IMG/VR virus record: IMGVR_UViG_2563366756_000009
Span: 23,904 to 87,903 of that record
Strand: one strand, 5' to 3'
Source: a virus
Taxonomy: Duplodnaviria; Caudoviricetes
DNA length: 64,000 bases
The first letter of the stretch is position 1. Each line of letters starts with the position of its first letter. This document shows, in pieces, positions 10,256-34,510 of the stretch. Under the pieces are notes generated by a model. It made no database searches and was not told the DNA's origin. It saw only the letters and a list, made by a program, of their open reading frames with translations. Made by a program: the position numbers and the translations under genes.

Positions 10256-11272
10256 ATGCAACGTATTGATACGCCTGACGGCCATTTCCATGCGGGCGAT
10301 CCGTCGGCAGGCGTCAAAGGCAGCGTCGTCACACGGGACTACATGGAGGCCGTGCAGGAAGAACTTGCCGCCATCCCTGAGAGTGTCGGCATCAAGCTGG
10401 ACAAGGGGGACAACAAGCAGATCCTGAAGGCAATTCAGAAGATGCTCGCTAGTGCGGTGGGTGGTCACGCGACGTCGGACGATGTCCAGAAGCTGATCGC
10501 CAAGGCCGTAGAGCCATACCTCCCCAAATCCGAGGCCGACTTCGCCAAAAAAGCGGGCGACGCCGCACAGACGTTTCAGGTAGCCGATGCGACCGAAGAT
10601 GGGCATGCGTTAAACCGCCGATCGGCGAATGGCCTGTATGCCAAGAAGGGCGAGGCAGGCGCTTCCACCTGGGATGGTGTCACAGGCAAGCCTACCACGC
10701 TCGATGGCTACGGCATCAAGGGCGAAGCCGATGGCCGCTATCTCGCCAAAGACTCGATGGCGATCACGCGCTTACAGACGTCGAATGTGACCTCCAGCGT
10801 GTCATCGATCGATTTCTCGAATCTGTCCGACGACTATGCGCAGTACATCGTAGAAATCTGCGACTTGTCCACGGACACGATGGGGGCGGAGCTGTGGCTA
10901 CGCTTATCTGAAGGGGGAAGCTGGCGCTCCTCATCCTACATAAGCACCTGGGCCTACAACAACCAGGCGCGCACGGGGGCCGCGCCGGGCAATGCTGGAG
11001 GTGACCACATCCAAATCCTGAACGGTATGCATGCCGGTAACGGACTCGGTGTGGCCGGGCGCATCGTGATCTACAGCCCGCATAGCGGCTCTGCGTTCAA
11101 GCGCCTCACCTGGGATATGCAGAACCACAACGCGGACTCGGGCGTGGGAACTGTCGCGCGCTACTACGGCGCAGGAGCGCTTGAGAGCCAACGGTCCATC
11201 GACGGCATCCGTCTGCAACTCTCAAGCGGCAGCATCGTCAACGCGACCGTCAAGCTTTATGGAGTGAATTGA
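10256..11272 (+). CDS. Tail fibre protein
   Basis: Mu gpS-type N-terminus (MQRIDT..VQEEL..LDKGDNKQILKAI), KPTTLDGYGI fibre repeat, beta-rich tip. Confidence 0.85.
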   Translation: MQRIDTPDGHFHAGDPSAGVKGSVVTRDYMEAVQEELAAIPESVGIKLDKGDNKQILKAIQKMLASAVGGHATSDDVQKLIAKAVEPYLPKSEADFAKKAGDAAQTFQVADATEDGHALNRRSANGLYAKKGEAGASTWDGVTGKPTTLDGYGIKGEADGRYLAKDSMAITRLQTSNVTSSVSSIDFSNLSDDYAQYIVEICDLSTDTMGAELWLRLSEGGSWRSSSYISTWAYNNQARTGAAPGNAGGDHIQILNGMHAGNGLGVAGRIVIYSPHSGSAFKRLTWDMQNHNADSGVGTVARYYGAGALESQRSIDGIRLQLSSGSIVNATVKLYGVN

Positions 11273-15394: not shown

Positions 15395-16384
15395 TTACCG
15401 CTTGCCGATCTTGTCCACGGCGGCGCTAAGTCGATCCGTTACGAGGTGGCTATAGCGCTTCGTGGAGACCATCGACTTGTGTCCTAGAACTGCGCCCACA
15501 GTGTACAGGTCCACCCCTGCATTAATCATCTCCGACGCAGCTCCGTGCCGAAGGTCGTGAAATCGGACGTTCGGCAGTCCGGCGGCTATGCGCGCACGAT
15601 CCCACACGTCGGAGAAGTGCACGTCGCTGATTGTGAACTTCACGCGCCGGGCCCAGACGGCTACCTTGCGATGGATGGGAACAATGCGAGGCGTGCCGTT
15701 CTTTGTGTCTGCCAGGGAGAAGCCTTTCTTCGTGACTTTTGCGCGTAGGATCTCCGATCGTCTCATTCCTGAATAGAAGGCGATCAGGATGGCGGCGCGA
15801 ACTTCTCGGTTCTTGCACGCGCGCGCTATCCGCAGCATTTCTGCCCGCTGAGGATAAGCATGCCGCTCATTGTTGACGGCCGGGAATACCATCCGCTTCG
15901 TGTTGTCGTGCTCGATCTTCCCGATCTTGTGCATGTACTTCACTGCCGCGCGGATATAGGCAAGGATGTTCCGGATCGACGCGTCGGTGAGGGGGCGCTT
16001 CGGATCTCCGTCATGATCGCGACTCGCGCGCAGGTACCCGACGAATTTCACCGACCACTCGTGCAGGTCATCGGCTGGCGAGTCGTCGTACTCGGCGCGC
16101 CATTTCTCCAAGATCCGCACGCGGGCCTCGGCGTCCTTCCATTCGCCTTGCTTGTCGGTAATGTGCTTTCGAACACATTCACCGATCGTCACGACGGGCT
16201 TACGCGCGCCGGTGGCTATGGCGTAGACTTCTGCCTCCCACTCGCGCGCTATTTTGTCCGCTTCGGCCGCAGTAACTCCAGCAGGGAGGAGTTTTGTTTT
16301 GCGGATACGCTCGCCCTCGATGACGCGCTCGAACGTCCAGCGGAAACGCTTCTTACCGGATTTTGCAATGGTTTCGATCGGCAT
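15395..16384 (-). CDS. int: Tyrosine integrase
   Basis: Catalytic R (SGMRRSE), K (TKNG), HxxR (FHDLRH), LGH, Y (TKRYSH); start MPIETIAK. Confidence 0.95.
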   Translation of the reverse strand: MPIETIAKSGKKRFRWTFERVIEGERIRKTKLLPAGVTAAEADKIAREWEAEVYAIATGARKPVVTIGECVRKHITDKQGEWKDAEARVRILEKWRAEYDDSPADDLHEWSVKFVGYLRASRDHDGDPKRPLTDASIRNILAYIRAAVKYMHKIGKIEHDNTKRMVFPAVNNERHAYPQRAEMLRIARACKNREVRAAILIAFYSGMRRSEILRAKVTKKGFSLADTKNGTPRIVPIHRKVAVWARRVKFTISDVHFSDVWDRARIAAGLPNVRFHDLRHGAASEMINAGVDLYTVGAVLGHKSMVSTKRYSHLVTDRLSAAVDKIGKR

Positions 16385-16545
16385 GATTCGAGATATCTGT
16401 ACAGTGAGTCGATGTCGTATACGTGTGTTTTGCGGGTCAGTTTGAACCGCTGAATCGTGCGGCCCTCGGTGTCCAGCCGGCAGACGAAAGCTACCGGTAC
16501 CCCTAGGATTGCCGCGGCTTCGGCCACAGGAACGAGTTTTCCCAT
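16249..16545 (-). CDS. Excisionase-like HTH protein overlapping int 5' end
   Basis: LVPVAEAAAILGVP winged-helix start, GGAGG RBS, position upstream of int. Confidence 0.75.
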   Translation of the reverse strand: MGKLVPVAEAAAILGVPVAFVCRLDTEGRTIQRFKLTRKTHVYDIDSLYRYLESCRSKPLQNPVRSVSAGRSSASSRASVSAKQNSSLLELLRPKRTK

Positions 16546-16806
16546 GTTCCAATCCTCCAATCTCTCGCGGTCGCCCGCAAAGTCTGCCTCAGAATGCAAA
16601 CGGGGACGCGCTAACAAGGGCGTCCCCGCTTTCCAGTCATCAAATCAAGCACCAACGGCGGCGCTCACGTCTAAATTCCCCAATCTCTCGCGGTGACCCG
16701 CAGAATCTCTTTCAGTGCTTCGGCCGTGTCGGCCAAAAATTCTCTGCCGTTCTTGGGGCATAAAGCGAAGTCGTGACACGACACTAGGCATTCACCAGTA
16801 GCCTTT

Positions 16807-17011: not shown

Positions 17012-18682
17012 TCATGCTGCTGCAATCTCACGTTGCTCGCGTGCGCTGAAGGCTGCCATTTCCGGCACGTTTGCGCGCACCAGCGCTGCAGCCATCGGTG
17101 GGCTGACGCTGTTGCCACACATGCGAACCTGCGCATGCTTTGCGAGGCGCTTGCCGTTGAACACCGGCGCGATGACGTAGCTCGCGGGAAAGCCCTGCGC
17201 CGCGTATAGCTCATGCGGCTCGAGCATGCGCATGCCGATGTCGGCGATCTGGTACGTCTGGCCGGCGACCGTGACGAGGCCCATGCGATCGGTGCACGGG
17301 ATCGTGTGCATCGGGTCACGGCAGTCCTGATCCTGGCCGCCTTCGCTGTAGTACTTCACCAGGAAGGCGCGAACCTCGCCGGTGTGGTTGCCCTGTGCCG
17401 AGATCGTAGGCGCGGGCTCCGCGGTAGCGCTTCCCGTGCATTCGCCGCGGAGCTTGACCATGTGCGACGACACCAGCGCATGATGGTCGGCCGTCGTGAT
17501 CGTGCTGGCCGGCTCTTTCAGTCCGACGCCGGACCCGTCGTAATTCCCGCCGTAGTGCTTCGCGAGAAAGGCCGCTGCGAGAGCGAAGTGCCCACCCTTG
17601 ACCTCGGCGCATTGGGTGCGCAGCGGCTCGTCTGCCGACCAAGAGCGTTGCGTCGAAGCATTCGCGCACTCAGTCAGCACCGGCGCGACAAGGCCAAACC
17701 CGTGTTTGCCGGTCAGCGTCTGAATTGGTTCGCCGAGCGGCTGACCCCGGAAGTATTCGTACCCGTGGTTCACCTTCACGATGAACGGATCGGCCGAGTT
17801 GATGACGTACCGGCGCATGCCCCGCGCGATTCGGCGCTGCGTTGTCTCAGCCAATTCCTTCTTGCGCTCGAAGATGGACGGGCAGGGGATCGACCAGTCG
17901 ATGCACTCGGCGGCTGTGCGCCACGGTTTGCGTTGGCCTGCGATCACGGCGGCACTGCCCGGCGCGCCGTGAGTCGGCTCGGGCCACACGATCGGCTTTC
18001 CGTCGCAACGTGCGATCAGGAACAGGCGTTTGCGGATCGTTGGCGCGCCATAGTCGCAGGCGCGTAGTTCGCGCCATTCCACAGTGTATCCGAGGCCATT
18101 CAACAGGCGGTCGGCGTGATCCTTCCCGGGCTCGATGTTCAGGAACTCGCACGCTTCCGAAAACGCCGGGTGGAGTGCGGAAATTCCGTCGGAAAGCATC
18201 GCGACGAACCCCTTGAACGTTTCACCCTTTCGGGCCGGGTCCGGTCGGTACTCCCCGGAGTCAATCTCGATCAGCGGTCCCCAGGTCACGAATTCCTCGA
18301 CGTTTTCGACCGGAACGACTCGCGGGCGTACCAACAGCATCCAACGCAGGATGATCCACGCAAGCCCACGAATTTCCTTCTTTACCGGCGCGCCACCCTT
18401 GGCCTTGCTGAAGTGCTTGCAGTCCGGTGAGAACCAAGCGAGGCCCACAGGACGACCCTGTGTCAGCGCGAGCGGGTCTACGTCCCACACCGATTCGCAG
18501 TGGTGCTCGGTCTGCGGGTGGTTCATCGCGTGCATTGCGACGGCCTCGGGATCGTGGTTGATTGCGTGATCGACGTGGCGCCCGAGAGCCAGCTCGATAC
18601 CGCAGCTCGCGCCGCCGCCGCCGGCGAAGTTATCGATGATCAACTCGTCGGAAATGTCGAGAAGGAACTGATCTCTGATCAT
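17012..18682 (-). CDS. C5-cytosine DNA methyltransferase (orphan)
   Basis: Motif I DNFAGGGG, catalytic SPDC, motif VI ENV, DYGAPT.RKR, C-terminal GNSV; start MIRDQFLL. Confidence 0.92.
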   Translation of the reverse strand: MIRDQFLLDISDELIIDNFAGGGGASCGIELALGRHVDHAINHDPEAVAMHAMNHPQTEHHCESVWDVDPLALTQGRPVGLAWFSPDCKHFSKAKGGAPVKKEIRGLAWIILRWMLLVRPRVVPVENVEEFVTWGPLIEIDSGEYRPDPARKGETFKGFVAMLSDGISALHPAFSEACEFLNIEPGKDHADRLLNGLGYTVEWRELRACDYGAPTIRKRLFLIARCDGKPIVWPEPTHGAPGSAAVIAGQRKPWRTAAECIDWSIPCPSIFERKKELAETTQRRIARGMRRYVINSADPFIVKVNHGYEYFRGQPLGEPIQTLTGKHGFGLVAPVLTECANASTQRSWSADEPLRTQCAEVKGGHFALAAAFLAKHYGGNYDGSGVGLKEPASTITTADHHALVSSHMVKLRGECTGSATAEPAPTISAQGNHTGEVRAFLVKYYSEGGQDQDCRDPMHTIPCTDRMGLVTVAGQTYQIADIGMRMLEPHELYAAQGFPASYVIAPVFNGKRLAKHAQVRMCGNSVSPPMAAALVRANVPEMAAFSAREQREIAAA

Positions 18683-18715
18683 GCTAGGATTCCTGAAAAA
18701 AAACGGGGGTAACGC

Positions 18716-19291
18716 ATGTGGCGATACGCAGCCAGCTTGATTGGCGGAATGGTGGGTGGATACTTTGTGGCGAAGTTCTGGCAGTACCCGCCGAGCAGTA
18801 GTCAGGATGCTGCCGCGTGGGTGCAGGCTGTGGGATCGATCATGGCCATTGCCGGAGCCGTCTGGATCTTTCGGGCTCAACGGCGCGGCGACAGACGTGA
18901 CAAATGGGATGGGATGCTCGCGATCGTCACCGTGGTCAAAGCCGACATCCAAAGCATCTATGCGTTCTGCGATACGACGAATGCTTCGCGATTTGATCCC
19001 GACCTCTATTTCGACGAAATATATCGCCCAGAGAATTTTGCACACGTTGACGATTTGCTCTCAGCCATACCTGTTCACGAAATTCCGTATGCGTGGGCCG
19101 CTTGGAATTTGATCGCCCTTCGGAGAGAACTTCGCCGCCTGGCTGATCTTCTCGCCGGGATGAACCAATCGCACTTGCGTCTTGGGAAGGAGGGTGTGAT
19201 CGACGAGTGTGTGATAGCGATGGAGCACGCGCGAGCGATCAAGAACCTTGCCGACGGGGTTAGAGATAGGCAATCGGTACACCATATGTAG
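18716..19291 (+). CDS. Accessory 2-TM protein with helical C-terminal domain
   Basis: 191 aa; two N-terminal hydrophobic segments (AAAWVQAVGSIMAIAGAVWI); cassette-flanked. Confidence 0.8.
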   Translation: MWRYAASLIGGMVGGYFVAKFWQYPPSSSQDAAAWVQAVGSIMAIAGAVWIFRAQRRGDRRDKWDGMLAIVTVVKADIQSIYAFCDTTNASRFDPDLYFDEIYRPENFAHVDDLLSAIPVHEIPYAWAAWNLIALRRELRRLADLLAGMNQSHLRLGKEGVIDECVIAMEHARAIKNLADGVRDRQSVHHM

Positions 19292-19356
19292 CGTCACGCC
19301 CCCTTAGCGCCGTCGACGCGTCATACTAGACGTCCTCGAAAGTTAAGGAGATCGGT

Positions 19357-19587
19357 ATGTATGCAGTTGACTATGAAGGGTATGCAATCAGTGTTTTGAT
19401 TGAGCGAGCGAAGCAATCCGAGCACCCCAACGGATTTGCCGTTTCCATCGTCATTAAGGCGGACGGCGAAGTTGTAGACCGGCAGCGGCGCACTGTGGAA
19501 TTCGAGACCCCGAAGGAGTCTGCTGTGGCGCTTGATTGGGGACTAAAGCTGGCCCGCCGTCGTATCGATACGGGGAGCTGGGACTAG
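19357..19587 (+). CDS. Small accessory protein (76 aa)
   Basis: TAAGGAG RBS; cassette-flanked. Confidence 0.75.
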   Translation: MYAVDYEGYAISVLIERAKQSEHPNGFAVSIVIKADGEVVDRQRRTVEFETPKESAVALDWGLKLARRRIDTGSWD

Positions 19588-19650
19588 CACCACGGCCCTC
19601 ACGCTGTCGGCGCGTGGTGCTAGGATTCCTCGAAACGAAAGGAGGCTGAG

Positions 19651-19890
19651 ATGGCCAAACCAGTCCTGTCGCCCGAACAATTCATCAACGAGGTTAATCG
19701 CCGACTTCCCAACATGTTCGGCTACAAGCCCGGCATGAAAGCGTTTCTGGTTCCTGACGGAGCCGATGGCGCGCATGCGACTGGCTACGACTGTGAGCCA
19801 GATGATCTGGCCACGATTGGCGCCGTGAAGGCAGCGTCCGACGCGGTGCTGCGGGAATTTGACGTGAATCCGTACATTTCTCGCGTCTAG
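19651..19890 (+). CDS. Small accessory protein (79 aa)
   Basis: AAAGGAGG RBS; cassette-flanked. Confidence 0.75.
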   Translation: MAKPVLSPEQFINEVNRRLPNMFGYKPGMKAFLVPDGADGAHATGYDCEPDDLATIGAVKAASDAVLREFDVNPYISRV

Positions 19891-19892
19891 CA

Positions 19893-20642
19893 TCACGCCC
19901 CCTTAGCGCCGTCGACGCGCTTGAACTCGACCACCCACACCCACGGGTTGGCGTCCCAAGAGCCGGGGCCGCTGATCGAATTCCACAATTGGCGAAAGTG
20001 GGCACGCGGCAGGCTTTCGAGTAGATCGCCGGACGACAAGACGCCCTCGGCACCACCGGTCAATCCGATTCCTTCAGCGATGCAATCCTGGTCGCTGATA
20101 CTGTTCAGGCGCTCAATACGCACGCCGGTCACGTCGAGCAGCGTCCGAGCAGCTTTGCGCGGCATATGGATCGAAGGACGCCACTGTCGATATTTCCCTT
20201 CCGGCGACTTCTCGCCATCAGGCCCATGCGGGTCATCTAGGTAATCGGCGCGATAGAAGACGAGGCAGCCGTCATCGTACGGCCCGAGGGGGTGGTTGCT
20301 GTGCTGCCACGTCTCGCGCACCCACAAGCGGTCACCCGCAACTCCGTATGGCGAGTGCTTCTCTGCGAACGTCGTCTGTCCCATGCAGTGGTACGTCCCG
20401 CGCGATGTGCACTCAGCAATTACGCTGAGTCGGTCGGTGCCAGTTGGCAACATGTCGGGGCAGACGAACAGATCTCCGATCTCGATATCGCTGAAGGTCG
20501 GTGGGTTCGTCCGGCTGACATACGGTTGCTTCTTCATCACGCGCCGCGTCTGCGTCTTCGAGCCGTCGAGGATGGCGCGCACCATCGGCGCGCTGAAAAG
20601 GATAGGGCGCTCGCGCACCGGCATTGGAGTGCTTTGGCTCAT
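19893..20642 (-). CDS. Conserved phage early protein (ASCH/PUA-like)
   Basis: RERPILFSAPMVRAILDGSKTQTRR, GDRLWVRETW, WRPSIHMPR, NPWVWVVEF. Confidence 0.8.
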   Translation of the reverse strand: MSQSTPMPVRERPILFSAPMVRAILDGSKTQTRRVMKKQPYVSRTNPPTFSDIEIGDLFVCPDMLPTGTDRLSVIAECTSRGTYHCMGQTTFAEKHSPYGVAGDRLWVRETWQHSNHPLGPYDDGCLVFYRADYLDDPHGPDGEKSPEGKYRQWRPSIHMPRKAARTLLDVTGVRIERLNSISDQDCIAEGIGLTGGAEGVLSSGDLLESLPRAHFRQLWNSISGPGSWDANPWVWVVEFKRVDGAKGA

Positions 20643-20674
20643 GCTAGGATTCCTCAAAAGATCCGGGGCGCTAA

Positions 20675-21304
20675 ATGAACAAGGTTGATAGATCGGTCAT
20701 CGACGATGGACGTGCGGTGTTGCTTGTCGCGTTCGGCATGCTGCTCGGAGTCGTTTTCGCTTACATCTGGCCGTGGAAGACATTGATCGTTGGTCAAACA
20801 AAAGACTGGGTCGATATCGCAACTGCGATCGGGACTGTTGGCGCGGTGGTGGCAGCAGTCGGAATCGCGTTGCGAGACGCGCGCTGGCGTCGTGAGACCA
20901 AGGAGTCGGAAGCCGTAATGGCCTGGGGTTTGGTCAGCGACGAGTTGCGCGCCAAAGGTGACGAGTTGAAGGAGATGTTGTCCGTCTTTTTCGCCGAGCC
21001 CGACCGCCTGCGACGGTCTGCCGAAAGCCTCTACGCCGCAAAGCGCGTCTCAGCCAATTTGGCGCTGACGATCCCACACGACATGCTAATCAAGCTCGCG
21101 AGCCTTCCTGGCGGAAGGGGCGGTCGCATCGCGCACGCTGTAGGCCTTTTCCCATCGATTCGACGTCTGCTTGAGCAGTACATCAGCGCAGGGGACTCGC
21201 ATGAGGTTTACTCGACAAGGAGTCTGGCGATACCGAAAATTGAGCAGGCTCTGGAAGATATCGAGATCGCTTTTCGAGACAAGGACGATAGGAGAATGAA
21301 GTAG
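20675..21304 (+). CDS. Accessory 2-TM protein with cytoplasmic helical domain
   Basis: 209 aa; two hydrophobic segments (DWVDIATAIGTVGAVVAAVGIAL); cassette-flanked. Confidence 0.8.
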   Translation: MNKVDRSVIDDGRAVLLVAFGMLLGVVFAYIWPWKTLIVGQTKDWVDIATAIGTVGAVVAAVGIALRDARWRRETKESEAVMAWGLVSDELRAKGDELKEMLSVFFAEPDRLRRSAESLYAAKRVSANLALTIPHDMLIKLASLPGGRGGRIAHAVGLFPSIRRLLEQYISAGDSHEVYSTRSLAIPKIEQALEDIEIAFRDKDDRRMK

Positions 21305-21306
21305 CA

Positions 21307-21717
21307 TCACTCCCCCTTAGCGCCGTCGACACGCTCGAAATAGAACACCACGGGCGCGCCGGTTTCCTGAACCAGTCCGTACGCTCTCGCCAGCCGGTAA
21401 ATCGGGTGGTAGCTGTTCAACGACGTCACATGCCCAGCGAGCCAAGTGCGCCAGTATTCGAGGCCCATCGATCCCTTGCTGATGTTGCAGGGCGGGCACG
21501 CAGGCATCATGTTTTCGATCACGTCGCGCTCTGGCCGTAGTGGCGTAGTCGTCGCTAGGCGCACGCCGCCGTTAGGGGCGTCCACACGCTTCAGATCGCG
21601 AATGCACGGCTCGAAGTGATCGGCATGCCAGTGCGCGGGCAATTCGCAGCCGCAATAGGCGCAACGGCCGTCGTATTTCTGGCGCACCTGCTCGCGTTGA
21701 GCTTTCGTCAGTTTCAC
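21307..21717 (-). CDS. HNH endonuclease-family protein
   Basis: YDGRCAYCGC..WHADH..MPACPPCNISKG. Confidence 0.85.
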   Translation of the reverse strand: MKLTKAQREQVRQKYDGRCAYCGCELPAHWHADHFEPCIRDLKRVDAPNGGVRLATTTPLRPERDVIENMMPACPPCNISKGSMGLEYWRTWLAGHVTSLNSYHPIYRLARAYGLVQETGAPVVFYFERVDGAKGE

Positions 21718-22043
21718 GATTTCCGCTCCTCCGCTGCCTGAGAGGCGGCGCGCACTATGGCTCTACGAGTTGCAGCGTATTCGTCGCGGTTGAACTGTTC
21801 GCGCACAAGCGGTTCATCCTCGCGCGCTGGGCATACCCATACTTCGGTATCCTGGCGCCGAATCTGGATTTCGAGTCCCAGCTTCACCGCCAGCCGTAGC
21901 GCGTCGCCGTCGTCGGTGAGAGGACGCCACGGCACCGGTATGTTCAGATTGCCGTTATACGCGTAGCAAAAGTCTTGGCCCCACCAGGAACCCTCAATCC
22001 CCGCCGCCTTAGCGGCCAGTTCCAGCAATTCGCGATCAGTCAC
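21714..22043 (-). CDS. Phage early hypothetical protein
   Basis: GTG start, TDRELLELAAKAAGI..WRPLTDDGDALRLAVKL..ATRRAIVRAA. Confidence 0.7.
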   Translation of the reverse strand: MTDRELLELAAKAAGIEGSWWGQDFCYAYNGNLNIPVPWRPLTDDGDALRLAVKLGLEIQIRRQDTEVWVCPAREDEPLVREQFNRDEYAATRRAIVRAASQAAEERKS

Positions 22044-22653
22044 GGGCTTCCCCCTTCGCCTTGGCGGCAATGGCGTCGACAACTGCGTCCAATTCTGCGC
22101 CGGCATCTGGCGCTACATAGGTAGGCCGGAGATTGATGATGTGAAATGCATCTCCGACGATGCACACTTTGTGGCGGACGATCCTATACCTTTCCGCATC
22201 CCGCTTGTCCTCCCCGCCATCCGCCGACAGCGCGGCGCAGGCGTAGTCCAGCGCAGCAAGCCAGACATGACGAGCTTTCTGAGATTCCCAATGCCCGTAC
22301 TCGTTGAGACTGCCTTTCTCGGCCTTGTCAAAGCGCTGGCAATCCTTGATGAACGTTTGACCGCGTGCGAATCGCTCAAACGCCTCCCGCTCATCCCCGC
22401 CCACCTGCGCGGTGGGCGAGATCGGCGTTAGGAACGTGCCGGTCGACTCAAGGTCGTATGAGCCCGCCGGACATTTGCCTACGGCCTGGCGCACAACGTC
22501 CCAGTCCACTTCCTTCGCGGGAGACGTGAGGGCGGCACTCCACGGAGACTCAAGCAACCGGCGAATGACTTCTGTTACGATTTCCGGATGGTGAGTCGGC
22601 ATGCGCCTCAGTTCTTGCGCGAGGCCGTAATTGGTATAGTCCGTTGGTTTCAT
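22036..22653 (-). CDS. Modular phage early protein (Ead/Ea22-like C-terminal RDAERY module)
   Basis: ATGA coupling with upstream ORF; EREAFE and KRDAERY modules. Confidence 0.55.
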   Translation of the reverse strand: MKPTDYTNYGLAQELRRMPTHHPEIVTEVIRRLLESPWSAALTSPAKEVDWDVVRQAVGKCPAGSYDLESTGTFLTPISPTAQVGGDEREAFERFARGQTFIKDCQRFDKAEKGSLNEYGHWESQKARHVWLAALDYACAALSADGGEDKRDAERYRIVRHKVCIVGDAFHIINLRPTYVAPDAGAELDAVVDAIAAKAKGEARD

Positions 22654-22835
22654 TTGCATTCGCCTTTTACGATTTTCCACGACGCTTCGCCCCATGCCAT
22701 GCGGCAGTATTGGCACATCCGACATAGTCCGAACTGCGTTGGCTTCCATTGCGAAACGCCTTTCTTCCCGCATTCCGGACACCGCAGGCGTTTGGGTTTG
22801 GGCACGCCGTAGCCCTGTCCAGCGCGGATTCCCAT
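22650..22835 (-). CDS. Small Zn-ribbon protein
   Basis: CPEC..CQYC, coupled at both ends. Confidence 0.65.
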   Translation of the reverse strand: MGIRAGQGYGVPKPKRLRCPECGKKGVSQWKPTQFGLCRMCQYCRMAWGEASWKIVKGECK

Positions 22836-23236
22836 TACTCATCCCCGCCCACCTGCTGCGCATCTGCGGCGCGTTTGTGTTCATCAGCATCCAAAGCCTG
22901 TTCAACGTCGGCAGTGTGTGGCGTCAATAGCTCGCCGCCATTCACGGGCGCGACGTAGACGATGCGAGTGCGGTAGCCTTCGGCCGCCAAGAAGCCGAAA
23001 TCGTGTCTAGTGACATCCCGCCATGAGGCACCTAATCCCACTTGATAGATCGCCTCTTGCCCTGCGCTCTGTGCGGCTGGCGTGGGGGCGGCAGGCTCAA
23101 ATAGCGGAACGATGATTTCTGCAATACGCGCCCGCAGTTGTTGGGCATCGCGGAACTCGATGGCAGTGTCGCGCAAGAGATTCACGAGCATGGCAACTTC
23201 GTGCGCATCAAACGTCACGGTCTTGAGGTCAGGCAT
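22835..23236 (-). CDS. Phage early hypothetical protein
   Basis: MPDLKTVTF start, coupled operon position. Confidence 0.55.
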   Translation of the reverse strand: MPDLKTVTFDAHEVAMLVNLLRDTAIEFRDAQQLRARIAEIIVPLFEPAAPTPAAQSAGQEAIYQVGLGASWRDVTRHDFGFLAAEGYRTRIVYVAPVNGGELLTPHTADVEQALDADEHKRAADAQQVGGDE

Positions 23237-23897
23237 TTGCGATCTCCGAGGTTTCGGTAGCCGCTTTCTTCGCGGCGTCGTACTCGCGAATCGCCCATGC
23301 GATTGCGTACAGGTTCCAGACGAAATGGAAGGTGTATTCCTTGCAGTTCCATTCCCAGCAGTCGGTGAAGAGGTCCGGGAAGTCACGAGCGTGGAAATCG
23401 CGCATACGCCTGAACGCGTCACCCTCGTCCCGGTGGTCGAGCACGGGCGACAGGATATCTTCCTGAATCTCTGCCATCAGTTCAGCGCGGCGCTCATCGG
23501 AAATTTCGGCGTCTTCCAGATGGCTCTCGATGCGCTCTTTCAAGCGCTTCTCGAACTGTTCGACCGAAAACTCTTCCGCACGCCCACGCCCATATCCATC
23601 GCTGGCTACCGCCTGAAGCTTCTCGCACCAGTAACCCTTATTGATGTACAGCTTGGCCGGGTCGCCCCGATCGTCAGTGCGGAAGAACTCGAACATGTCG
23701 GTCAGCCGCGAGAAGACGTAAGTGCCCATATCACCACGGATGCACAGTGCGCCGGGCCACGTCAGGATCTCGAACCAGTACGATGAGCCGCCCTCTGCAC
23801 GCCGAAGCGCGATATGGCGATTGACACCGTCGTCACGAATCACCGTCATTTGGTGCGTGGCAACGTCTTGCAGGAATCTCTCTTGGGTGCAGGTCAT
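23229..23897 (-). CDS. Conserved phage early protein
   Basis: YWFEILTWPGALCIRGDMGTYVFSRLTDMFEFFR..YWCEKL. Confidence 0.75.
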   Translation of the reverse strand: MTCTQERFLQDVATHQMTVIRDDGVNRHIALRRAEGGSSYWFEILTWPGALCIRGDMGTYVFSRLTDMFEFFRTDDRGDPAKLYINKGYWCEKLQAVASDGYGRGRAEEFSVEQFEKRLKERIESHLEDAEISDERRAELMAEIQEDILSPVLDHRDEGDAFRRMRDFHARDFPDLFTDCWEWNCKEYTFHFVWNLYAIAWAIREYDAAKKAATETSEIANA

Positions 23898-24220
23898 GCT
23901 TCCACCTCTCTTGCGGCTGCTGCGTGGCCCATGCAGCCATGCTCTTTGTGATCGAAGTTGTCGCACTTGCCGAACGGGATGAAGTTGTGGCCGCGCGACA
24001 GTTCATCAAGCAGTTCGGCCTTCGCCTCGTCGGGCGTCATCGTGCGACCGTCGTCGTGCTTGAACATCCCGCGAAAGTCACGGGGCTTCCAGTTCATAAG
24101 TGCGCCGCGCACATCGAGGCACAAATGAAAACTCTTGCGCTGATGCGTTAGCGTCTGCACCACAGAAGGCGGCGCAGGATCGGTATTCAGCCCTTCGGGG
24201 CGTGGGTCGTAGGGGCTCAT
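23894..24220 (-). CDS. Conserved phage early protein
   Basis: LCLDVRGAL..DEAKAELLDEL..CDNFD..GCMGH; start at cassette motif. Confidence 0.7.
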   Translation of the reverse strand: MSPYDPRPEGLNTDPAPPSVVQTLTHQRKSFHLCLDVRGALMNWKPRDFRGMFKHDDGRTMTPDEAKAELLDELSRGHNFIPFGKCDNFDHKEHGCMGHAAAAREVEA

Positions 24221-24257
24221 GCTAGGATTGCCCTCCTAAACAAAAAGGAGAAATCGC

Positions 24258-24644
24258 TTGGATAAGTGGTCAAGAAGAATCGGGGGATTGACCGTTGCAC
24301 TGACATGCCTTTCGGGACATGCGGCAGATTGGGCAGGCTGGGTTCGTGTGCCGTTTCCGCCATCGAAGGACGGGCCAGAAGCGTCCATCTGGTGTCAGAG
24401 GCCTAAGCCGTATTACCCTGCCGAATGGGCTGATGCGGGAGAGGTAGGGGTGGTAAAAATTCGCGTGGTCGTTGCCCCGTCCGAGCGCGTGGTCTCAGCA
24501 TCGGTTGTGCAATCGTCTGGATTCGTGCGTTTGGACGACGCTGCTCTTGCTGCAGCGAAAGCTGTCCGATGCCGGGCCGTTACTGGCGATATTCCGTCCC
24601 CTGGATTTTCCGCCATCATGCCTATTTCGTTCGAGGCACATTAG
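24258..24644 (+). CDS. Exported TonB C-terminal domain protein
   Basis: TTG start 7 nt after AAGGAG; signal peptide ending GHA; YPAEWADAGEVGVVKIRVVV..VVQSSGFVRLDDAALAAAK matches TonB_C pattern. Confidence 0.75.
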   Translation: MDKWSRRIGGLTVALTCLSGHAADWAGWVRVPFPPSKDGPEASIWCQRPKPYYPAEWADAGEVGVVKIRVVVAPSERVVSASVVQSSGFVRLDDAALAAAKAVRCRAVTGDIPSPGFSAIMPISFEAH

Positions 24645-24792
24645 AGGGCTCAAACGAGCACCCCCCAGCGTCTGCCGTCCACGCCGGCGGTATACGTCGT
24701 TCTTCGCTGCGAAGAGTTCTAGCGCTTTCACCACTGACGCGCTAAGGGTGACGGTAACTTTGCTCATGCTAGGATTCCTGAAAATTTCGGGG

Positions 24793-25401
24793 ATGGCGAT
24801 GGACAAGGAACAAAATGGAGATCAGGTGAGCATCAGCCTGAATCGGACCATCAACACATATGCGGAGCTATGGCATGGAGCAAAATCGTTGGCGGCGAAA
24901 GGTCGTGCCGACGTCGATGGCTCGTTTTGGACGCTCATGGGGGCTCAGATTCTCTTTGCGTTCAGCATCGAGGCGTACTGCAACTACGCTCTTCCGTATG
25001 TGTTTTCTAACCTAACGGAGAACCGCCGGCGGGATGTTGCCCAGCGCCCTCCTGTGTGCAGGATTGCACTGATCTGCGCGTCGCTGGACGTATCGTTCAA
25101 TGAAGGTGGCGACGAGTTGAACGCGCTCCAAGAACTATTCAGATTGAGAAACTCATTGGCGCATGGACGACAGCTGGATCTCGCCGAAAGCAAGATGTAC
25201 GCGGCGGAGGACGTCAACGATCCAGCGAATTTTTGGCTTTCCGCACCTTGGGAGGCGATGTGTACAGTGGACGCTGTAGACAGGACTCAGGATGTCGCTT
25301 ATCGGATCATCACGGGAATTCACGGAAGATTGCCAACACATCTCGGGCGTCCGTTTAAATTCGGCGTCGGTTCTGGATTGGCTCAACTGGTGCGGTCGTA
25401 G
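24793..25401 (+). CDS. HEPN-motif (RxxxxH) accessory protein
   Basis: 202 aa helical; AFSIEAYCN and ELFRLRNSLAHG. Confidence 0.7.
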   Translation: MAMDKEQNGDQVSISLNRTINTYAELWHGAKSLAAKGRADVDGSFWTLMGAQILFAFSIEAYCNYALPYVFSNLTENRRRDVAQRPPVCRIALICASLDVSFNEGGDELNALQELFRLRNSLAHGRQLDLAESKMYAAEDVNDPANFWLSAPWEAMCTVDAVDRTQDVAYRIITGIHGRLPTHLGRPFKFGVGSGLAQLVRS

Positions 25402-25535
25402 TTACAAATCTGCGGGTCGTTCAAGTACTCCCGCCAATGCACCCATCGCGTTGGCGTGTGAAACCCCCAGTTGCGCTGCCACGGCCCCAGGATGAAAGGG
25501 GGGGCGCGTAGACAGATCGACCAGCACGATGGCGG

Positions 25536-27137
25536 TTACGCCGCTTGTTTTTGCAGTGCCGATTGAATGTGGTCAATCAAAGCCGCACAAATCACCTCAA
25601 AGTCGCCTTCGTGGTACAGCTTCGCGGCCTTGTCGGTCGCGGCGTGAGTGATGCCAAGGCTGGCAAGACCGTCGGCGGTCAGGCTAATCGGCGAGAGGCG
25701 CTCATTGATCTGCCCGAGGCGAAGCGTGGGTGCGCCCTTTGAGGCAGCGCGCACAGTCGTATTCCAAGGCGGCGCATCCGGTTTCTGTTGGGTCGGCCCG
25801 GAAGGGCTGACTGCCGCAGTAGGTATTGCCGGAGCGCCCGGCGTGACCTTCTGCGCTTCCGCTCGCTTGTGCTGCTCGATCCGCGTCGTGACGGCCAACT
25901 GAAAATCCTCGGCCGGTTTCTGGATTAAGGATTGCAGGTCACGGAACAGGAACACGTGGCTTTCGTGCTGGGCGAACCAAGCCAACTTCTCGCGCAAATC
26001 CCGCGCGGCGGCGTCAGCGGCGATCTTGCCCGCGGCGACGGCCGTGTCGACGGCGTCGTGGAGGCTCGCGAGCGTGCGCTTGTTCTTTGCCGCTGCCACG
26101 AGGTCCGGTGCGGGGATCACGATTTGGACCGGCTTCAGTTCGGCGTTCAGCGCGGCCACGTGATCCGTGTAGGCCTTGCGTCCGCCGACAATGATTTCGC
26201 CCTTGATCTCTTCTTTGCGCTTCGTGACGAGTTTGTCGAGGCCCAGCCGCTTTTCGCGGAGTTGGGACTTGATGTAGTCGACCGTGCGCATCAGCTCGTC
26301 GATGCTGGCCGTCTGAGCGAGTGCTGCGTTCTTCGCGACTTCGAGTTCCTTTTCGGCGGTTTCGCAGAACTTGACCGTCGCTTCGGCGTTCGCGAAGTCT
26401 TCGTCGCTCTTCAGGTCGGTCTTGATGCCCTCGATGAAGCGCTCAGCAGCCGCTCGGAACGTCGGCAGGTTGCTCGCAAGCACCTCGCCGCAGATCTGCA
26501 CGGCGAGCGCCGGCAACGCCATGATTGCGTCGGCCTGCGGCTTCTCGACAATCTCGACCGGCGCGTAGCTCACTAGGTCGCTCGCGAACTGTTCCCAGCC
26601 GGCCTGCAGTCGCTCGAACCATTGCGCATCAGGTTCGATCTCGATGCGCTCCATGTTGTCGGGCGTGCCGTCCGAGACAACGAAAATCACCTTCTTTGCA
26701 CCCGTCACTAGCATGACCTGCTGGCATTGCGGCCAGTACTCTTCGGGCAACTCGCCAGCGCGCACAGCTTCAGCCAGTCCCGCGTTCCATTGCTTGTGCT
26801 CGAACGCGATGTCTTCGGCCATCGTCAGACCATCGCACGAAGCGGACAGGCGCCCCAGTGAACAGGTAACCGGGTACAGATCGTCTCCGATGATGCCCTC
26901 GACGATCGGGCGTGCCAGCGCTTCAACCTCGTGGCCGTAATCCAGAATGTTCTTCTGAACCCAGTCCGAGAACTCGCGCGGCGTGCCGACATACTTCATG
27001 TGCAGTAACTCGTTGCGCTTTACCTTGGACGAGAGGCCAAGCATTGCGGCGGCTTCGCTTGCGCCGAAGTGCTCCAGGCGGAACTGCGCCCATTCGTCAG
27101 ATCCCTGCACCAAGTTGTGAATGATGCGTTCAGTCAT
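25536..27137 (-). CDS. YqaJ-like viral recombinase/exonuclease with helical C-terminal domain
   Basis: LVQGSDEW, FGASEAAAMLGLS, GHEVE, LSASCDGLT, FEHK, YWPQCQQ. Confidence 0.9.
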   Translation of the reverse strand: MTERIIHNLVQGSDEWAQFRLEHFGASEAAAMLGLSSKVKRNELLHMKYVGTPREFSDWVQKNILDYGHEVEALARPIVEGIIGDDLYPVTCSLGRLSASCDGLTMAEDIAFEHKQWNAGLAEAVRAGELPEEYWPQCQQVMLVTGAKKVIFVVSDGTPDNMERIEIEPDAQWFERLQAGWEQFASDLVSYAPVEIVEKPQADAIMALPALAVQICGEVLASNLPTFRAAAERFIEGIKTDLKSDEDFANAEATVKFCETAEKELEVAKNAALAQTASIDELMRTVDYIKSQLREKRLGLDKLVTKRKEEIKGEIIVGGRKAYTDHVAALNAELKPVQIVIPAPDLVAAAKNKRTLASLHDAVDTAVAAGKIAADAAARDLREKLAWFAQHESHVFLFRDLQSLIQKPAEDFQLAVTTRIEQHKRAEAQKVTPGAPAIPTAAVSPSGPTQQKPDAPPWNTTVRAASKGAPTLRLGQINERLSPISLTADGLASLGITHAATDKAAKLYHEGDFEVICAALIDHIQSALQKQAA

Positions 27138-28194
27138 TTTCGTGGCTCCATGCGTCGATCGTCAGCTTCTGGTCTTCGGTGAGGCGTAGCCGCGTCTCGA
27201 TCATCGCGATCAGGTCAGCGGGAGTTTTGGCCTTCTCGATGATTTGCTTCCGCCACCCGTCCTTCTTTTTTGCGAAATCCTCGGCCGTGCAGGTGGGGAT
27301 AGTCTTGGTTTCGCTCTGCGTCGCCGCGCCGGCTGCATCGCCGCCTTGCTGCTCGGCGCGGTTTTCCATCACCGACTTCCAAGTGGCTTCGCCATCCTTG
27401 ATGGCGCCATAGATGCCGCGCAGATCGACCAGTTCAGTAGGCGAGCAGGTGTCGAGTGAATGGCCGAGGTACTTCGTCAATTCCTCGACTTTCACGCCGA
27501 TTTCGTGGAACGCGTCAGCGATCCGCTTACGCTCTGCTGCTGGGTCACGCGCGGCCTCATCCATACGAACAGATTTGATGATTCCCTCGGCTTCGTCCTG
27601 CAAATCGCCGGGGATAATGCGCAGGCCCAGCGTCCGTATCGCTTTCGAGATCAGTGCCGCCCGCTTGTTGAGCAGGTCGTCATCGTTGGCCGTTACCGTG
27701 TACGTCATCTTCCCGTAGCTGTTCTTGCGAACCGAGATATACGTACCGTCGTCCATCGGCTTCGAGCGCTCGACCGTCTTCGAGACCCGCACGTCGAGCG
27801 GATACGTGAGGTTCGATTCGAGGTCGGTCACGCTGACGCGGTGCACTTCTTTGGCGTCGTCCTCGAAGATCATCGTCGTCTCGACAAGGACGTTCGACAT
27901 ACAGCGCAGCGCGACTTCGACGAAGCGAATGCCGAGCCCCTCGACACCGTTGCCGATAGGCTTTCGGTAGTAGGCGCTCTTGTTTTTGGCGAACGTGGGT
28001 CGGCGGCACTCGTTGATGAGATCCTGGCGAACTCGATCCCAGTTGCGGGGCCGCTGCATCGCCATGATGTAGCGAGCCTCAACCATCGCTTTGGACTGGG
28101 CGGCGACTGCTGTCGATGCGGTCTCGACGACGGCCATCGTTTGGTGCTGTGCGCCGAATTCGTTGCGTGTGGTCAGTGCGTTGGTCATGGTCAC
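27130..28194 (-). CDS. Putative recombination partner / single-strand annealing protein
   Basis: Coupled to YqaJ exonuclease; AYYRKPIGNGVEGLGIRFVE; family uncertain. Confidence 0.55.
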   Translation of the reverse strand: MTMTNALTTRNEFGAQHQTMAVVETASTAVAAQSKAMVEARYIMAMQRPRNWDRVRQDLINECRRPTFAKNKSAYYRKPIGNGVEGLGIRFVEVALRCMSNVLVETTMIFEDDAKEVHRVSVTDLESNLTYPLDVRVSKTVERSKPMDDGTYISVRKNSYGKMTYTVTANDDDLLNKRAALISKAIRTLGLRIIPGDLQDEAEGIIKSVRMDEAARDPAAERKRIADAFHEIGVKVEELTKYLGHSLDTCSPTELVDLRGIYGAIKDGEATWKSVMENRAEQQGGDAAGAATQSETKTIPTCTAEDFAKKKDGWRKQIIEKAKTPADLIAMIETRLRLTEDQKLTIDAWSHEND

Positions 28195-29150: not shown

Positions 29151-29422
29151 ACACGCACCTCGCCCTCGGCAAAGACGTTGATCTCAACCTCGAACGCGAC
29201 CTGCAGGATTTCGCCGGCGCGCTTCGTGTCCTGCTTGATGAGCGCATCCTGCAATGCGCAGTAGCCGTCGTAATCGGTGTCGATCAGGCGCTGCACCGCG
29301 TTCTGGACGTCGGCTGATTCGGCGGCACGCTCGCGGGCCGCACGCTTCAACTCGTCGAGCGTTTGCTGACGAACGTGTGCGCCGGTGTCTCGCGACACCG
29401 CGCATTCGAGTTGTGTGTACAT
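29147..29422 (-). CDS. Phage early hypothetical protein
   Basis: MYTQLEC start; GTGA coupling. Confidence 0.55.
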   Translation of the reverse strand: MYTQLECAVSRDTGAHVRQQTLDELKRAARERAAESADVQNAVQRLIDTDYDGYCALQDALIKQDTKRAGEILQVAFEVEINVFAEGEVRV

Positions 29423-29622
29423 GGGGATTCCTTCTGACGTGCGGGGGGCGCCCCGGCAGAACACCGGGGCGATGCGGCTTTAACCATGTCCGCCATGGGC
29501 CTCTGAGCGTTCAGGCTTGCTTCAAACTAGAAAGGGAGGGAAGTCTGATATGCTGTTTTCGGCTTGGCTGCAGTGCCCGGCTGACCCGAAACGACCCCCG
29601 AATATTCCATCTGAGGAAGCCA

Positions 29623-33673: not shown

Positions 33674-34510
33674 TCAAAGCTTGGTCCCGCGCCACGCATA
33701 GACCACTCTGCCAAGGATCTTGAATTTCTCGCGCTCGCCATTCTGGATCAGGTACGGCTCGTACTTCTTGTTGTCTGAGATCATGAGAATTGATCCGTCC
33801 GGACGACGCTGCAGCCGTTTCACGTACAACTCATCGCGCAGAGCAAGAACATAAATCGCATCAACTTTCACGTCGACCACGCCACGGTCAACCCATAGCA
33901 AGTCACCGTCGTTGAAGGTACCTTCCATCGAGTCTCCGAACGCTGGCAAAAGCGCAAGATTCCTTGGGCTGGACACATTTGGCAGGGTGTCCCGGACCCA
34001 TGTCCGGGTGACTCTGATCTGTTCCACGACATTGTCATAGTCGGGCATCGGGAAGCCATTCCCCATGGACGCGCGTACGTCGAAGCGCGGGATCTCAATC
34101 TCGTCCGCCAAAGCCTTTGCAAAATCGAATCTGGTCAGATGGGCCGCGGCGCTGGTCGGATCGTCAAAGTCAGCATCCGTCAACTCGCTCACATCAGGGA
34201 GAACGTCAGAGGGGGGCGGACCTTCATAGTTACGCAGTGCAGGCGAAATATGTAACGCAACGCTCATGGCCTGTTTGGCGAGCGTCGGGCTGAAATCGGC
34301 AATAGAAACGCCTAGACCGCGCGCGAAGCCGGCGGCGGCCTTCGCATTCAGCGGGCTTCGCGCATTGAGGTACTGCCAAACCATCCCCTGCGAGCCGATC
34401 TCGAACTTCGCGCCGAACGCCTCTTGCGATAGATCGGATTTGACTTTGAATAGGGCCTTCAGACGCGCCGCGTCTTCGATCTGCCAGGGAAGAAGGGTTG
34501 TTTTTGCCAT
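33674..34510 (-). CDS. cI: CI-like repressor with S24 autopeptidase
   Basis: N-terminal HTH (LSQEAFG..SQGMVWQYLN), GDSMEGT Ser and YVKRL Lys. Confidence 0.93.
   Translation of the reverse strand: MAKTTLLPWQIEDAARLKALFKVKSDLSQEAFGAKFEIGSQGMVWQYLNARSPLNAKAAAGFARGLGVSIADFSPTLAKQAMSVALHISPALRNYEGPPPSDVLPDVSELTDADFDDPTSAAAHLTRFDFAKALADEIEIPRFDVRASMGNGFPMPDYDNVVEQIRVTRTWVRDTLPNVSSPRNLALLPAFGDSMEGTFNDGDLLWVDRGVVDVKVDAIYVLALRDELYVKRLQRRPDGSILMISDNKKYEPYLIQNGEREKFKILGRVVYAWRGTKL

Follow-up and report, generated by a model that had tools for sequence, protein, structure and literature searches.

How can accessory genes lie backwards within a phage early operon, and be exchanged there for others? The window, by which we mean the whole 64,000-nt stretch of viral DNA analysed here, raises this question because an earlier note, made from the letters alone, had described a minus-strand early operon broken by six plus-strand genes, each preceded by CATGCTAGGATTCCT or a variant of it. 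We confirmed this layout (Table 1). A scan of the window returned three exact copies of the 15-mer and two copies with two mismatches, one with GGTG in place of CATG (19616) and one ending in TTGCC (24218); this total of five sites was reached by none of 100 shuffles. The sixth copy, read from the sequence, matches the motif at 11 of 15 positions. A start codon lies 19–25 nt past each window motif. As had also been claimed, all six cargo ORFs stop at TAG, and four of them end at a shared 3' module of 30–32 nt. We consider it probable that the 15-mer unites two overlapping expression signals with a recombination joint, that is, a compact two-way promoter/RBS (ribosome-binding site) adaptor for morons. 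Most likely, this adaptor lets backwards-facing accessory genes plug into the early operon and be swapped within it.

Table 1. Early genes, cargo genes and boundary motifs, with window coordinates.
Feature	Position	Strand	Remarks
Prophage integrase, tyrosine recombinase	15395–16552		Prophage end; family scan
C5 cytosine DNA methyltransferase, early-operon gene	17012–18682	-	Pfam DNA_methylase 1e-19; ATG within motif A
5' motif A, exact 15-mer	18680–18694	+	Plus strand, putative extended -10; minus strand, SD and ATG of methyltransferase
Cargo A, 191 aa	18716–19291	+	N-terminal membrane segment; family A1
3' module, orphan copy	19289–19320	+	31/32; adjoins next 5' motif, no early gene between
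5' motif B, degenerate	19322–19336	+	11/15; -10 without TG and last T
Cargo B, 76 aa	19357–19587	+	Weak DUF6566 / CV_2116 similarity only
Cassette B/C junction	19581–19630	+	Diverged 3' module (19585–19614), then 5' motif without CAT (19616–19630)
Cargo C, 79 aa	19651–19890	+	Relatives at other junctions
3' module, reference copy	19888–19919	+	32/32; includes ASCH-like gene end
ASCH-like early gene, 249 aa	19893–20642	-	phrog_874; commonest early-gene partner of motif
5' motif D, exact	20640–20654	+	Motif scan
Cargo D, 209 aa	20675–21304	+	Membrane segment; family A1, clustered with cargo A by sequence
3' module copy	21302–21333	+	30/32; forms last codons of HNH gene
HNH endonuclease gene	21307–21717	-	Pfam HNH
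Early gene, 108 aa	23894–24220	-	ATG within motif E
5' motif E, TTGCC-end variant	24218–24232	+	Motif scan
Cargo E, 128 aa	24258–24644	+	TTG start; TonB C-terminal domain (Pfam TonB_C 1e-11, TIGR01352)
Early-gene remnant (of 203-aa gene)	24495–24767	-	Homology in first 25 codons only; remaining frame antisense into cargo E
5' motif F, exact	24765–24779	+	Motif scan
Cargo F, 200–202 aa	24793–25401	+	Start possibly 24799; weak HEPN (RiboL-PSP) lead
RecE-like recombination exonuclease	25536–27137	-	YqaJ domain; domain/family match
354-aa neighbour of exonuclease	27130–28194		PHROGs phrog_3657, family of no known function

Two overlapping halves of the 5' motif

The motif had been proposed to be read twice, as an extended -10 element on one strand and as a Shine-Dalgarno sequence (SD) plus ATG on the other. 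This dual reading was supported by a motif-independent sample of 25 loci, fetched by cargo protein family and not by motif, in which each half is conserved along with a partner of its own. In 17 of these loci TGNTASGAT lies 21–27 nt ahead of the cargo start codon, and in 13 of the 17 it is the sole such site in ~3.5 kb. CAT and then (T/G)CCN are found in ten of the 17, and the seven loci without CAT also lack the TCCT complement of the SD after the -10. The -10 half moves with the cargo; CAT and the SD complement persist only beside a divergent early-gene start. Among 80 unselected ASCH-like homologues, 78 have a plain SD–ATG start without the motif.

Alignment of 133 non-redundant junctions revealed a T before CAT, A-rich positions 18–21 and the G residues of an SD at positions 29–30, the cargo start codon lying mostly 17–26 nt past the motif. 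Variants of the motif are changed at positions 8, 12, 13 and 15, while T3, G4 and T11 are invariant and T6, A7 and A10 are changed at most twice. No conserved -35 was found upstream of the motif across the 133 junctions, and a sigma-70 consensus scan that requires a -35 called no promoter at any window motif. The motif might be a strong RBS and nothing else, spread by descent and recombination, the cargo being transcribed from elsewhere or within other transcripts. The unconserved -35 agrees with this. So does the finding that sequences close to the SD half (AGGAATCC with ATG a few bases on) turn up elsewhere in host genomes at about control level; the window has one further such sequence, lacking the CTAG part, at ~29420–29436. 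However, even at those loci of the motif-independent sample that lack an early-gene start and have lost the SD half, the -10 half keeps its fixed spacing to the cargo start, TG is kept at tandem junctions despite the absence of a start codon, and the divergent start codons are only ~35–40 nt apart, which leaves no room for another promoter. We regard this explanation as improbable.

For the two-way adaptor, we infer promoter activity and expression of the cargo in the lysogen. On the plus strand, TGCTAGGAT would serve as a putative extended -10 promoter without a -35, with transcription predicted to start in the A-rich run ~7 nt beyond the -10 and a leader of ~20 nt that would bear the SD of the cargo. 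On the minus strand, the same bases would be read as AGGA, an 8-nt spacer and ATG, and would give the next early gene a translation start of its own, because the inserted backwards gene broke its coupling to the preceding gene. During lytic growth, opposing early transcription would silence the cargo.

In cluster A mycobacteriophages, stoperators with the sequence of the early promoter's operator are placed at gene boundaries, all facing one way, where they stop early transcription in the lysogen. Several same-orientation copies at the gene boundaries of one operon, and a near-palindromic motif centre (AGGATTCCT) that contains GANTC, could point to a repressor- or regulator-binding site of this kind. 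Yet outside 18680–24779 the 64 kb, the repressor/cro region included, gave no copy with up to three mismatches, and a fixed spacing to the divergent start codon is unexpected for a roadblock site; such a role is very improbable.

Spread of the motif and exchange of cargo

The motif is not restricted to one genome with a fixed cargo: we found ~170 distinct junctions (more than 160) in Burkholderiales proviruses and genomes. The exact 15-mer is present in 85 IMG/VR stretches, ~65 of which are proviruses of roughly 60% GC with the same layout. Species-representative genomes contain a 16-mer at 102 loci: 55 lie in Burkholderiales and one in Azonexus, also a member of the Betaproteobacteria, and the remainder are scattered at chance level. 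The hosts of motif-bearing prophages are Pandoraea, Paraburkholderia and relatives. A TACGAT variant lies at a gene start of the cultured Burkholderia phage vB_RY3; Megablast against cultured phages matched only the methyltransferase and small pieces. The earlier note knew of no description of these motifs, and a full-text literature search with the motif strings returned unrelated primers only; a search at the level of the concept found moron hotspots of Burkholderia phages and no motif.

As had been predicted, cargo is swappable at constant junctions. In 107 junctions, 46 early-gene families are joined to 50 cargo families; the ASCH-like family takes part in 24 junctions with 18 cargo families, and cargo family A1 in 18 junctions with 15 neighbour families. 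Compared pairwise, 167 junctions gave 186 pairs alike on the early-gene side only, 14 alike on the cargo side only and 7 alike on both, and homology to close relatives stops at the last base of the motif. Different cargo lies next to the methyltransferase start in five other loci (L031, L034, L072, L075 and L187). Cargo D with its leader follows another early gene in L066, and cargo E with its leader is found at another junction in L187 behind the same TTGCC end of the motif; judged from these sequences, this variant end travels with cargo E, whose homologues in relatives start with GTG or TTG at the same place. Relatives of cargo C occupy other junctions, for example the ASCH-like gene start in L139; a search for related loci with cargo C alone returned no relative.

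Cassette-free alleles, another expectation of the earlier note, exist for three junctions of the window (L056 and L062; L094; L010 and L148). In L056 and L062 the corresponding junction has neither cassette D nor the HNH gene, and L010 and L148 carry the cassette-free allele of the 108-aa early gene junction (motif E). The supposition that insertion is always clean and leaves the operon intact found no support: cassette E, which has no 3' module, sits on a truncated early gene and left 25 codons of it.

Cargo genes of the window thus lie between genes that are adjacent in related phages, as morons do, a concept of Hendrix and Juhala for lambdoid phages (reviewed in PMC3594210). Also as in morons, they are present or absent among relatives, and different genes share a hotspot. 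A promoter of their own is probable, a conserved extended -10 lying at a fixed distance from the cargo start codon. Their base composition differs in the manner of morons, by a small margin, the G+C of the cargo being slightly lower (0.56–0.58, GC3 0.62–0.67) than that of neighbouring early genes (0.57–0.62, GC3 0.64–0.75). Unlike morons, which have no defining common sequence, at least 50 cargo families are marked at their 5' edge by one 15-mer, which overlaps the start of the neighbouring gene, and no terminator is found. For Burkholderia phages, morons and insertion hotspots have been reported, with no motif (PMC2920897). The moron concept is here tied to a sequence-defined, searchable joint, and the 15-mer or its 9-nt core directly finds accessory genes of Burkholderiales prophages.

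Nearly all of the 50 cargo families have no known function. The commonest, A1, is present in 52 of 300 Burkholderiaceae genomes (17%). In cargo E the TonB C-terminal domain stands behind a signal or lipoprotein-like N-terminus. PADLOC recognised no defence family among the six cargoes, NCBIfam and PHROGs found little in them, a protein atlas returned unnamed clusters only, and Rfam had no family between 15 and 37 kb. In Pandoraea, Paraburkholderia, Cupriavidus and Burkholderia, the cargo families are candidates for a part in lysogenic conversion and in defence against phages.

Cassette ends and the route of exchange

The claim that two unrelated proteins share a tail was confirmed: likeness between the 249-aa and 136-aa proteins is confined to their last 12 residues. 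On the minus strand the reference 3' module supplies the final eight codons of the ASCH-like gene and its stop, along with a G-rich SD and an orphan ATG. The module, taken earlier for a designed cassette end, looks instead like the end of the ASCH-like gene with its stop/start junction, that is, like the remnant of a gene end. The proposed inverted ends (ATGCTAG...CTAGCAT) are present, over 7 nt, in the window but belong to a minority elsewhere, TAGCAT being found at the stop of 12 of 129 cassettes. A transposon reading was rejected on these grounds, there being no inverted ends beyond those 7 nt. CTAG as an obligatory 3' edge was also rejected, as the base ahead of the TAG stop varies.

An integron- or transposon-type system, in which a site-specific enzyme cuts out units with defined ends and puts them in at stop/start overlaps, possibly via circles, would account for the sharp module edges: at least four unrelated sequences adjoin the end of the 3' module at one and the same base, the 5' motif starts with T-CAT in every case, and the two abut without a gap at the two tandem junctions of the window. 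About ten different cargoes are flanked by both modules, the same cargo with its leader is found at different junctions in close relatives, and there are the short inverted ends and one junction hairpin, an 11-bp inverted repeat at the cassette B/C junction (single-strand DNA fold z = -3.1). This hairpin is the only strong one; the five other window junctions showed no attC-like folding, and 15 tandem junctions in relatives folded no better than shuffles. Against such a system also stand the scarcity of TAGCAT ends, a distance from cargo stop to 3' module that ranges from 0 to ~25 nt, the occurrence of the 3' module without any cassette in L094 and its resemblance to a native gene end, and the truncation of an early gene by cassette E. 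The ordinary prophage integrase is the only recombinase recognised by Pfam or PHROGs scans of the main ORFs of 15.4–36 kb. The integron-like mechanism of the earlier note is accordingly unlikely. There is a likeness to integron cassettes, in that single-gene units form arrays, can be exchanged and are bounded by recurring sequences. The differences are that no attC-like site is present at any junction except B/C, that there is no intI, that each unit has a promoter-like element, and that the boundaries double as expression signals of the host operon.

In the preferred reading the 15 nt also serve as a joint: present unchanged at many junctions of one phage and of different phages, they offer a short homology for re-assorting early-gene and cargo modules. 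The exchange would probably be catalysed by the RecE-like exonuclease and an annealing partner, and a second crossover could take place where gene ends are conserved, as in the 3' module. We take the 354-aa neighbour of the exonuclease, from its position, to be the putative partner; it had no Pfam, NCBIfam or PDB sequence match. Recombinases of the RecE-like type have been reported to recombine short or diverged homology (PMC3945230). Temperate phage mosaicism likewise involves short conserved boundary sequences and relaxed homologous recombination (PMC3945230); here too joints coincide with short stretches in common and the phage encodes a recombination system, but the common stretch recurs several times within one genome and is itself a probable two-way expression element. 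The PeSL of virulent T4-type myoviruses, a full sigma-70-like promoter with a stem-loop terminator (PMC2839356), shuffles, deletes and replaces genes by recombination between copies (PMC2839356, PMC4122927). Like the PeSL, which flanks variable small genes of plastic regions, the 15-mer is a conserved and putatively promoter-bearing motif that recurs next to variable genes and at which mosaic joints fall. In contrast to the PeSL, we found an extended -10 by itself, joined to an RBS and ATG of the divergent gene and without a stem-loop, in temperate Burkholderiales phages whose cargo faces against the operon. The motif is a concrete case of short functional sequences guiding modular exchange, a temperate-phage counterpart of T4-type PeSLs; if it works as proposed, the divergent unit of 35–40 nt is a very compact two-way expression part.

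Homologous recombination cannot explain the first arrival of the module exactly at the ATG of 46 unrelated genes, which implies at least one non-homologous founding event per family. There is some small chance that the units are genuinely mobile cassettes whose ends are set by sequence, on one side T-CAT with the next 12 bases and on the other the stop/start junction module. Through a dedicated or recombineering-like mechanism they would insert at the start codons of operons with translational coupling, bringing a portable stop for the upstream gene and a portable SD–ATG for the downstream gene, with TAG in the end signal. If so, they would provide phage operons with a natural plug-in system for antisense cargo.

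An adaptor that is also a joint leaves two features of the cargo ends unaccounted for. Firstly, cargo shows an about threefold enrichment of TAG stops (61/129 versus 79/535, Fisher 3.5e-14; 22/49 by family), and 5 of the 37 long ORFs of the window end in TAG. Secondly, the preferred arrangement is the cargo stop, two bases and the stop of the neighbour. No intrinsic terminator was detected after any of the six cargo genes; one hairpin without a T-run follows cargo B.

Other short conserved islands of the same kind occur in the early operon, for example at 23051–23092.

Motif copies and cargo genes

The window comes from an 87.9-kb provirus in IMG/VR with a lambdoid layout; its host is probably Pandoraea. 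The methyltransferase protein shares 99% identity with a P. bronchicola locus and the integrase protein 96% with a P. anapnoica locus. Six plus-strand accessory genes (cargo A to F) interrupt the minus-strand early operon, each preceded by a copy of the 15-mer CATGCTAGGATTCCT, the 5' motif. None of 100 shuffles of the sequence yielded five sites. A plus-strand ORF starts 19–25 nt after every one of the six copies, and all six cargo ORFs stop at TAG. A 32-nt 3' motif is present in three copies with 0–2 mismatches, besides a diverged fourth, and on the minus strand it encodes the final residues of two otherwise unlike proteins (ASCH-like and HNH). Since the motif copies, ORF starts and spacing, TAG stops and shared tail were all confirmed, the description of motifs and ORFs in the earlier note is accurate, apart from small corrections.

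The plus-strand cargo ORFs are genes. Sequence clustering places cargo A and cargo D with 15 other cargoes in a single family, members of which were found by profile search in 52 of the 300 Burkholderiaceae genomes sampled. Cargo A and cargo F each fall into a sizeable cluster of unnamed proteins, cargo F with a weak HEPN lead; cargo E carries a TonB C-terminal domain. Exclusion or defence roles are proposed for cargo A, D, E and F.

Features of the window and their positions
Feature	Position	Remarks
Integrase	15395-16552	
Early operon		minus strand; C5 methyltransferase, ASCH-like gene, HNH gene, small genes without known function
5' motif, exact copies	18680, 20640, 24765	
5' motif, two mismatches	19616, 24218	
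5' motif, degenerate sixth copy	19322-19336	11 of 15 positions match
3' motif, diverged fourth copy	19585-19614	
Early-gene remnant	24495-24767	first 25 residues shared with the 203-aa protein of related loci L010 and L148
RecE-like exonuclease with YqaJ domain	25536-27137	
S24-peptidase repressor	33674-34510	rightward genes beyond

Spread of the 15-mer and its two predicted functions

Exact copies of the 15-mer were found in 85 IMG/VR stretches, a count that chance could approach in a collection of this size. About 20 of these matches look like chance (low G+C, or no gene after the motif); the other ~65 are proviruses with a G+C of about 60%, where the CAT of the motif opens a minus-strand gene and is followed by a Shine–Dalgarno sequence (SD) and a plus-strand start codon. 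A search with the 15-mer plus its preceding T, limited to one genome per species, returned 102 loci: 55 in Burkholderiales (Paraburkholderia, Pandoraea, Cupriavidus, Caballeronia, Herbaspirillum and others), one in the betaproteobacterium Azonexus, and the remainder dispersed across unrelated phyla. The cultured Burkholderia phage vB_RY3 carries a TACGAT variant where the gene preceding its integrase starts. Junctions extend well beyond this genome, and we found no description of the motif in the literature searched. About 170 distinct junctions were collected from fetched DNA with two mismatches allowed; their profile consists of the T before CAT, the 15 motif positions, an A-rich run at 18–21 and the SD guanines at 29–30, with no conserved -35. 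Among minor observations, the cargo after the variant in vB_RY3 (10380-10735) looks disrupted, and another TGCTACGAT lies ahead of the next counter-oriented gene of that phage; in many related proviruses the gene starting at the motif is an SPPY-type amino-methyltransferase; and motif positions 9–13 (18688-18692 in the window, for instance) read GATTC, a GANTC site overlapping the -10.

Because these loci had all been found through the motif, its internal conservation could not be judged from them, and we therefore took a motif-independent sample of loci fetched by cargo protein family alone, 25 of them evaluable. TGNTASGAT lies 21–27 nt before the cargo start codon in 17 of the 25, and in 13 of these 17 it is the sole such site on both strands of ~3.5 kb. 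Of the 17 loci, 10 have CAT in front of this site and (T/G)CCN behind it; the 7 without CAT also lack the TCCT complement of an SD after the -10. This separate conservation of the two halves suggests that the extended -10 belongs to the cargo, that the ATG and SD serve the divergent early gene, and that the 15-mer is the overlap of the two, in keeping with the dual use proposed in the earlier note. The sample, a sequence comparison, is the strongest evidence here for a putative cargo promoter. The tandem junction at 19616 retains the TG although no gene starts there.

Elsewhere in the window, the stretch 29420-29560 holds the start (29551) of a further counter-oriented gene, of 251 aa and no family; ahead of this gene lies a 117-nt spacer that contains a G+C-rich palindrome. 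The minus-strand gene divergent to it has the motif's SD half (AGGAATCC, four bases, ATG) and not the CTAG part, and in several relatives the spacer is conserved over 29419-29521. An island of ~80 nt (25413-25501), located between cargo F and the exonuclease gene, is 80–96% conserved in many relatives and may hold a 41-codon minus-strand ORF (25402-25527).

Cassette-free alleles and re-assortment at the junctions

Three window junctions have cassette-free alleles in relatives, which bears out the presence/absence variation expected of them. At related loci L056 and L062, a GTGA overlap joins the ASCH-like gene straight to the gene standing before HNH in the window, HNH and cassette D (cargo D with its boundary motifs) both being absent. 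At L094, the HNH gene with its 3' module leads straight into a methyltransferase start. At L010 and L148, an ATGA overlap couples a 203-aa gene to the 108-aa gene's homologue; the window retains just the first 25 codons of that 203-aa gene, and the frame of this remnant continues antisense into cargo E, so cassette E came with a deletion. Among ASCH-like homologues fetched irrespective of the motif, 78 of 80 start at an ordinary SD-ATG.

The 5' motif is a mosaic joint. Both partners could be read at 107 junctions, which combine 50 families of cargo with 46 of early genes. The ASCH-like family by itself is paired with 18 cargo families, in support of different cargo occupying the same junctions, and the most frequent cargo family lies beside 15 different neighbour families. 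Pairs of junctions are alike on the early-gene side only in 186 cases, on the cargo side only in 14 and on both sides in 7. The window is homologous to its closest relatives up to the final base of the motif and not beyond. The same TonB-type cargo with its leader and a variant motif end lies at the 108-aa gene in the window and at the ASCH-like gene in P. bronchicola, locating the crossover within the left and central part of the 15-mer.

The constant part of the 3' motif starts at a CAT that is an orphan ATG on the minus strand, and the motif ends at one fixed base next to at least four unrelated gene bodies. Native ASCH-like proteins have the same few terminal residues as the beginning of the tail and then two to a few more, their genes overlapping the next one by ATGA after these last residues; the HNH and ASCH-like proteins have only the last 12 residues in common. 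We read the 3' module as an ASCH-like gene end plus intercistronic junction that moved along with cassettes and served again as a second site for crossovers. The module is not cassette-specific, since L094 has it without a cassette. HNH seems to have taken the place of the main part of another ASCH-like copy. The HNH gene (21307-21717, considered with cassette D at 20640-21333) begins GTG AAA, like the ASCH-like gene of the cassette-free allele, and its end is the ASCH-like tail.

Exchange mechanism and known relatives

The integron-like system put forward earlier found no support: the folding of 15 tandem junctions from relatives is no stronger than that of shuffled sequences, only one of the six window junctions has a strong hairpin (19581-19630), and no recombinase other than the prophage integrase appeared among the genes scanned. 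A stoperator-like role is also unlikely, no further motif copy lying near the repressor gene or elsewhere in the window. Recombination at the motif would account for cassette exchange; it does not explain how the module was founded at 46 unrelated gene starts. With an ATG supplied by the module itself, an in-frame fusion anywhere close to the start of a gene would suffice, and the varied N-termini of ASCH-like genes fit such founding. Also unexplained by recombination are the enrichment of TAG stops, which in the window and about 100 loci is about threefold in cargo genes (61 of 129) over other genes of the same loci (79 of 535) and maintained when counted by family (22 of 49), and the preferred arrangement of cargo stop, two bases and the convergent neighbour's stop.

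By position the cassettes qualify as morons but are without terminators, and published accounts of Burkholderia phage morons give hotspots and no shared sequence. By mechanism the nearest analogue is the PeSL found in T4-type phages, a conserved motif of promoter and terminator where small genes shuffle, from which the 15-mer joint differs in anatomy, orientation and phage type. From sequence comparison, the 15-mer is best described as a real, widespread and apparently undescribed motif that probably acts as a two-way adaptor and as a recombination joint for antisense morons. Within the 133-aa early gene, a 42-nt stretch (23051-23092) encoding an Ala/Pro/Gln-rich linker has 0–3 mismatches in at least 12 loci, with unrelated sequence for 40 nt on each side, and is probably another short recombination joint.
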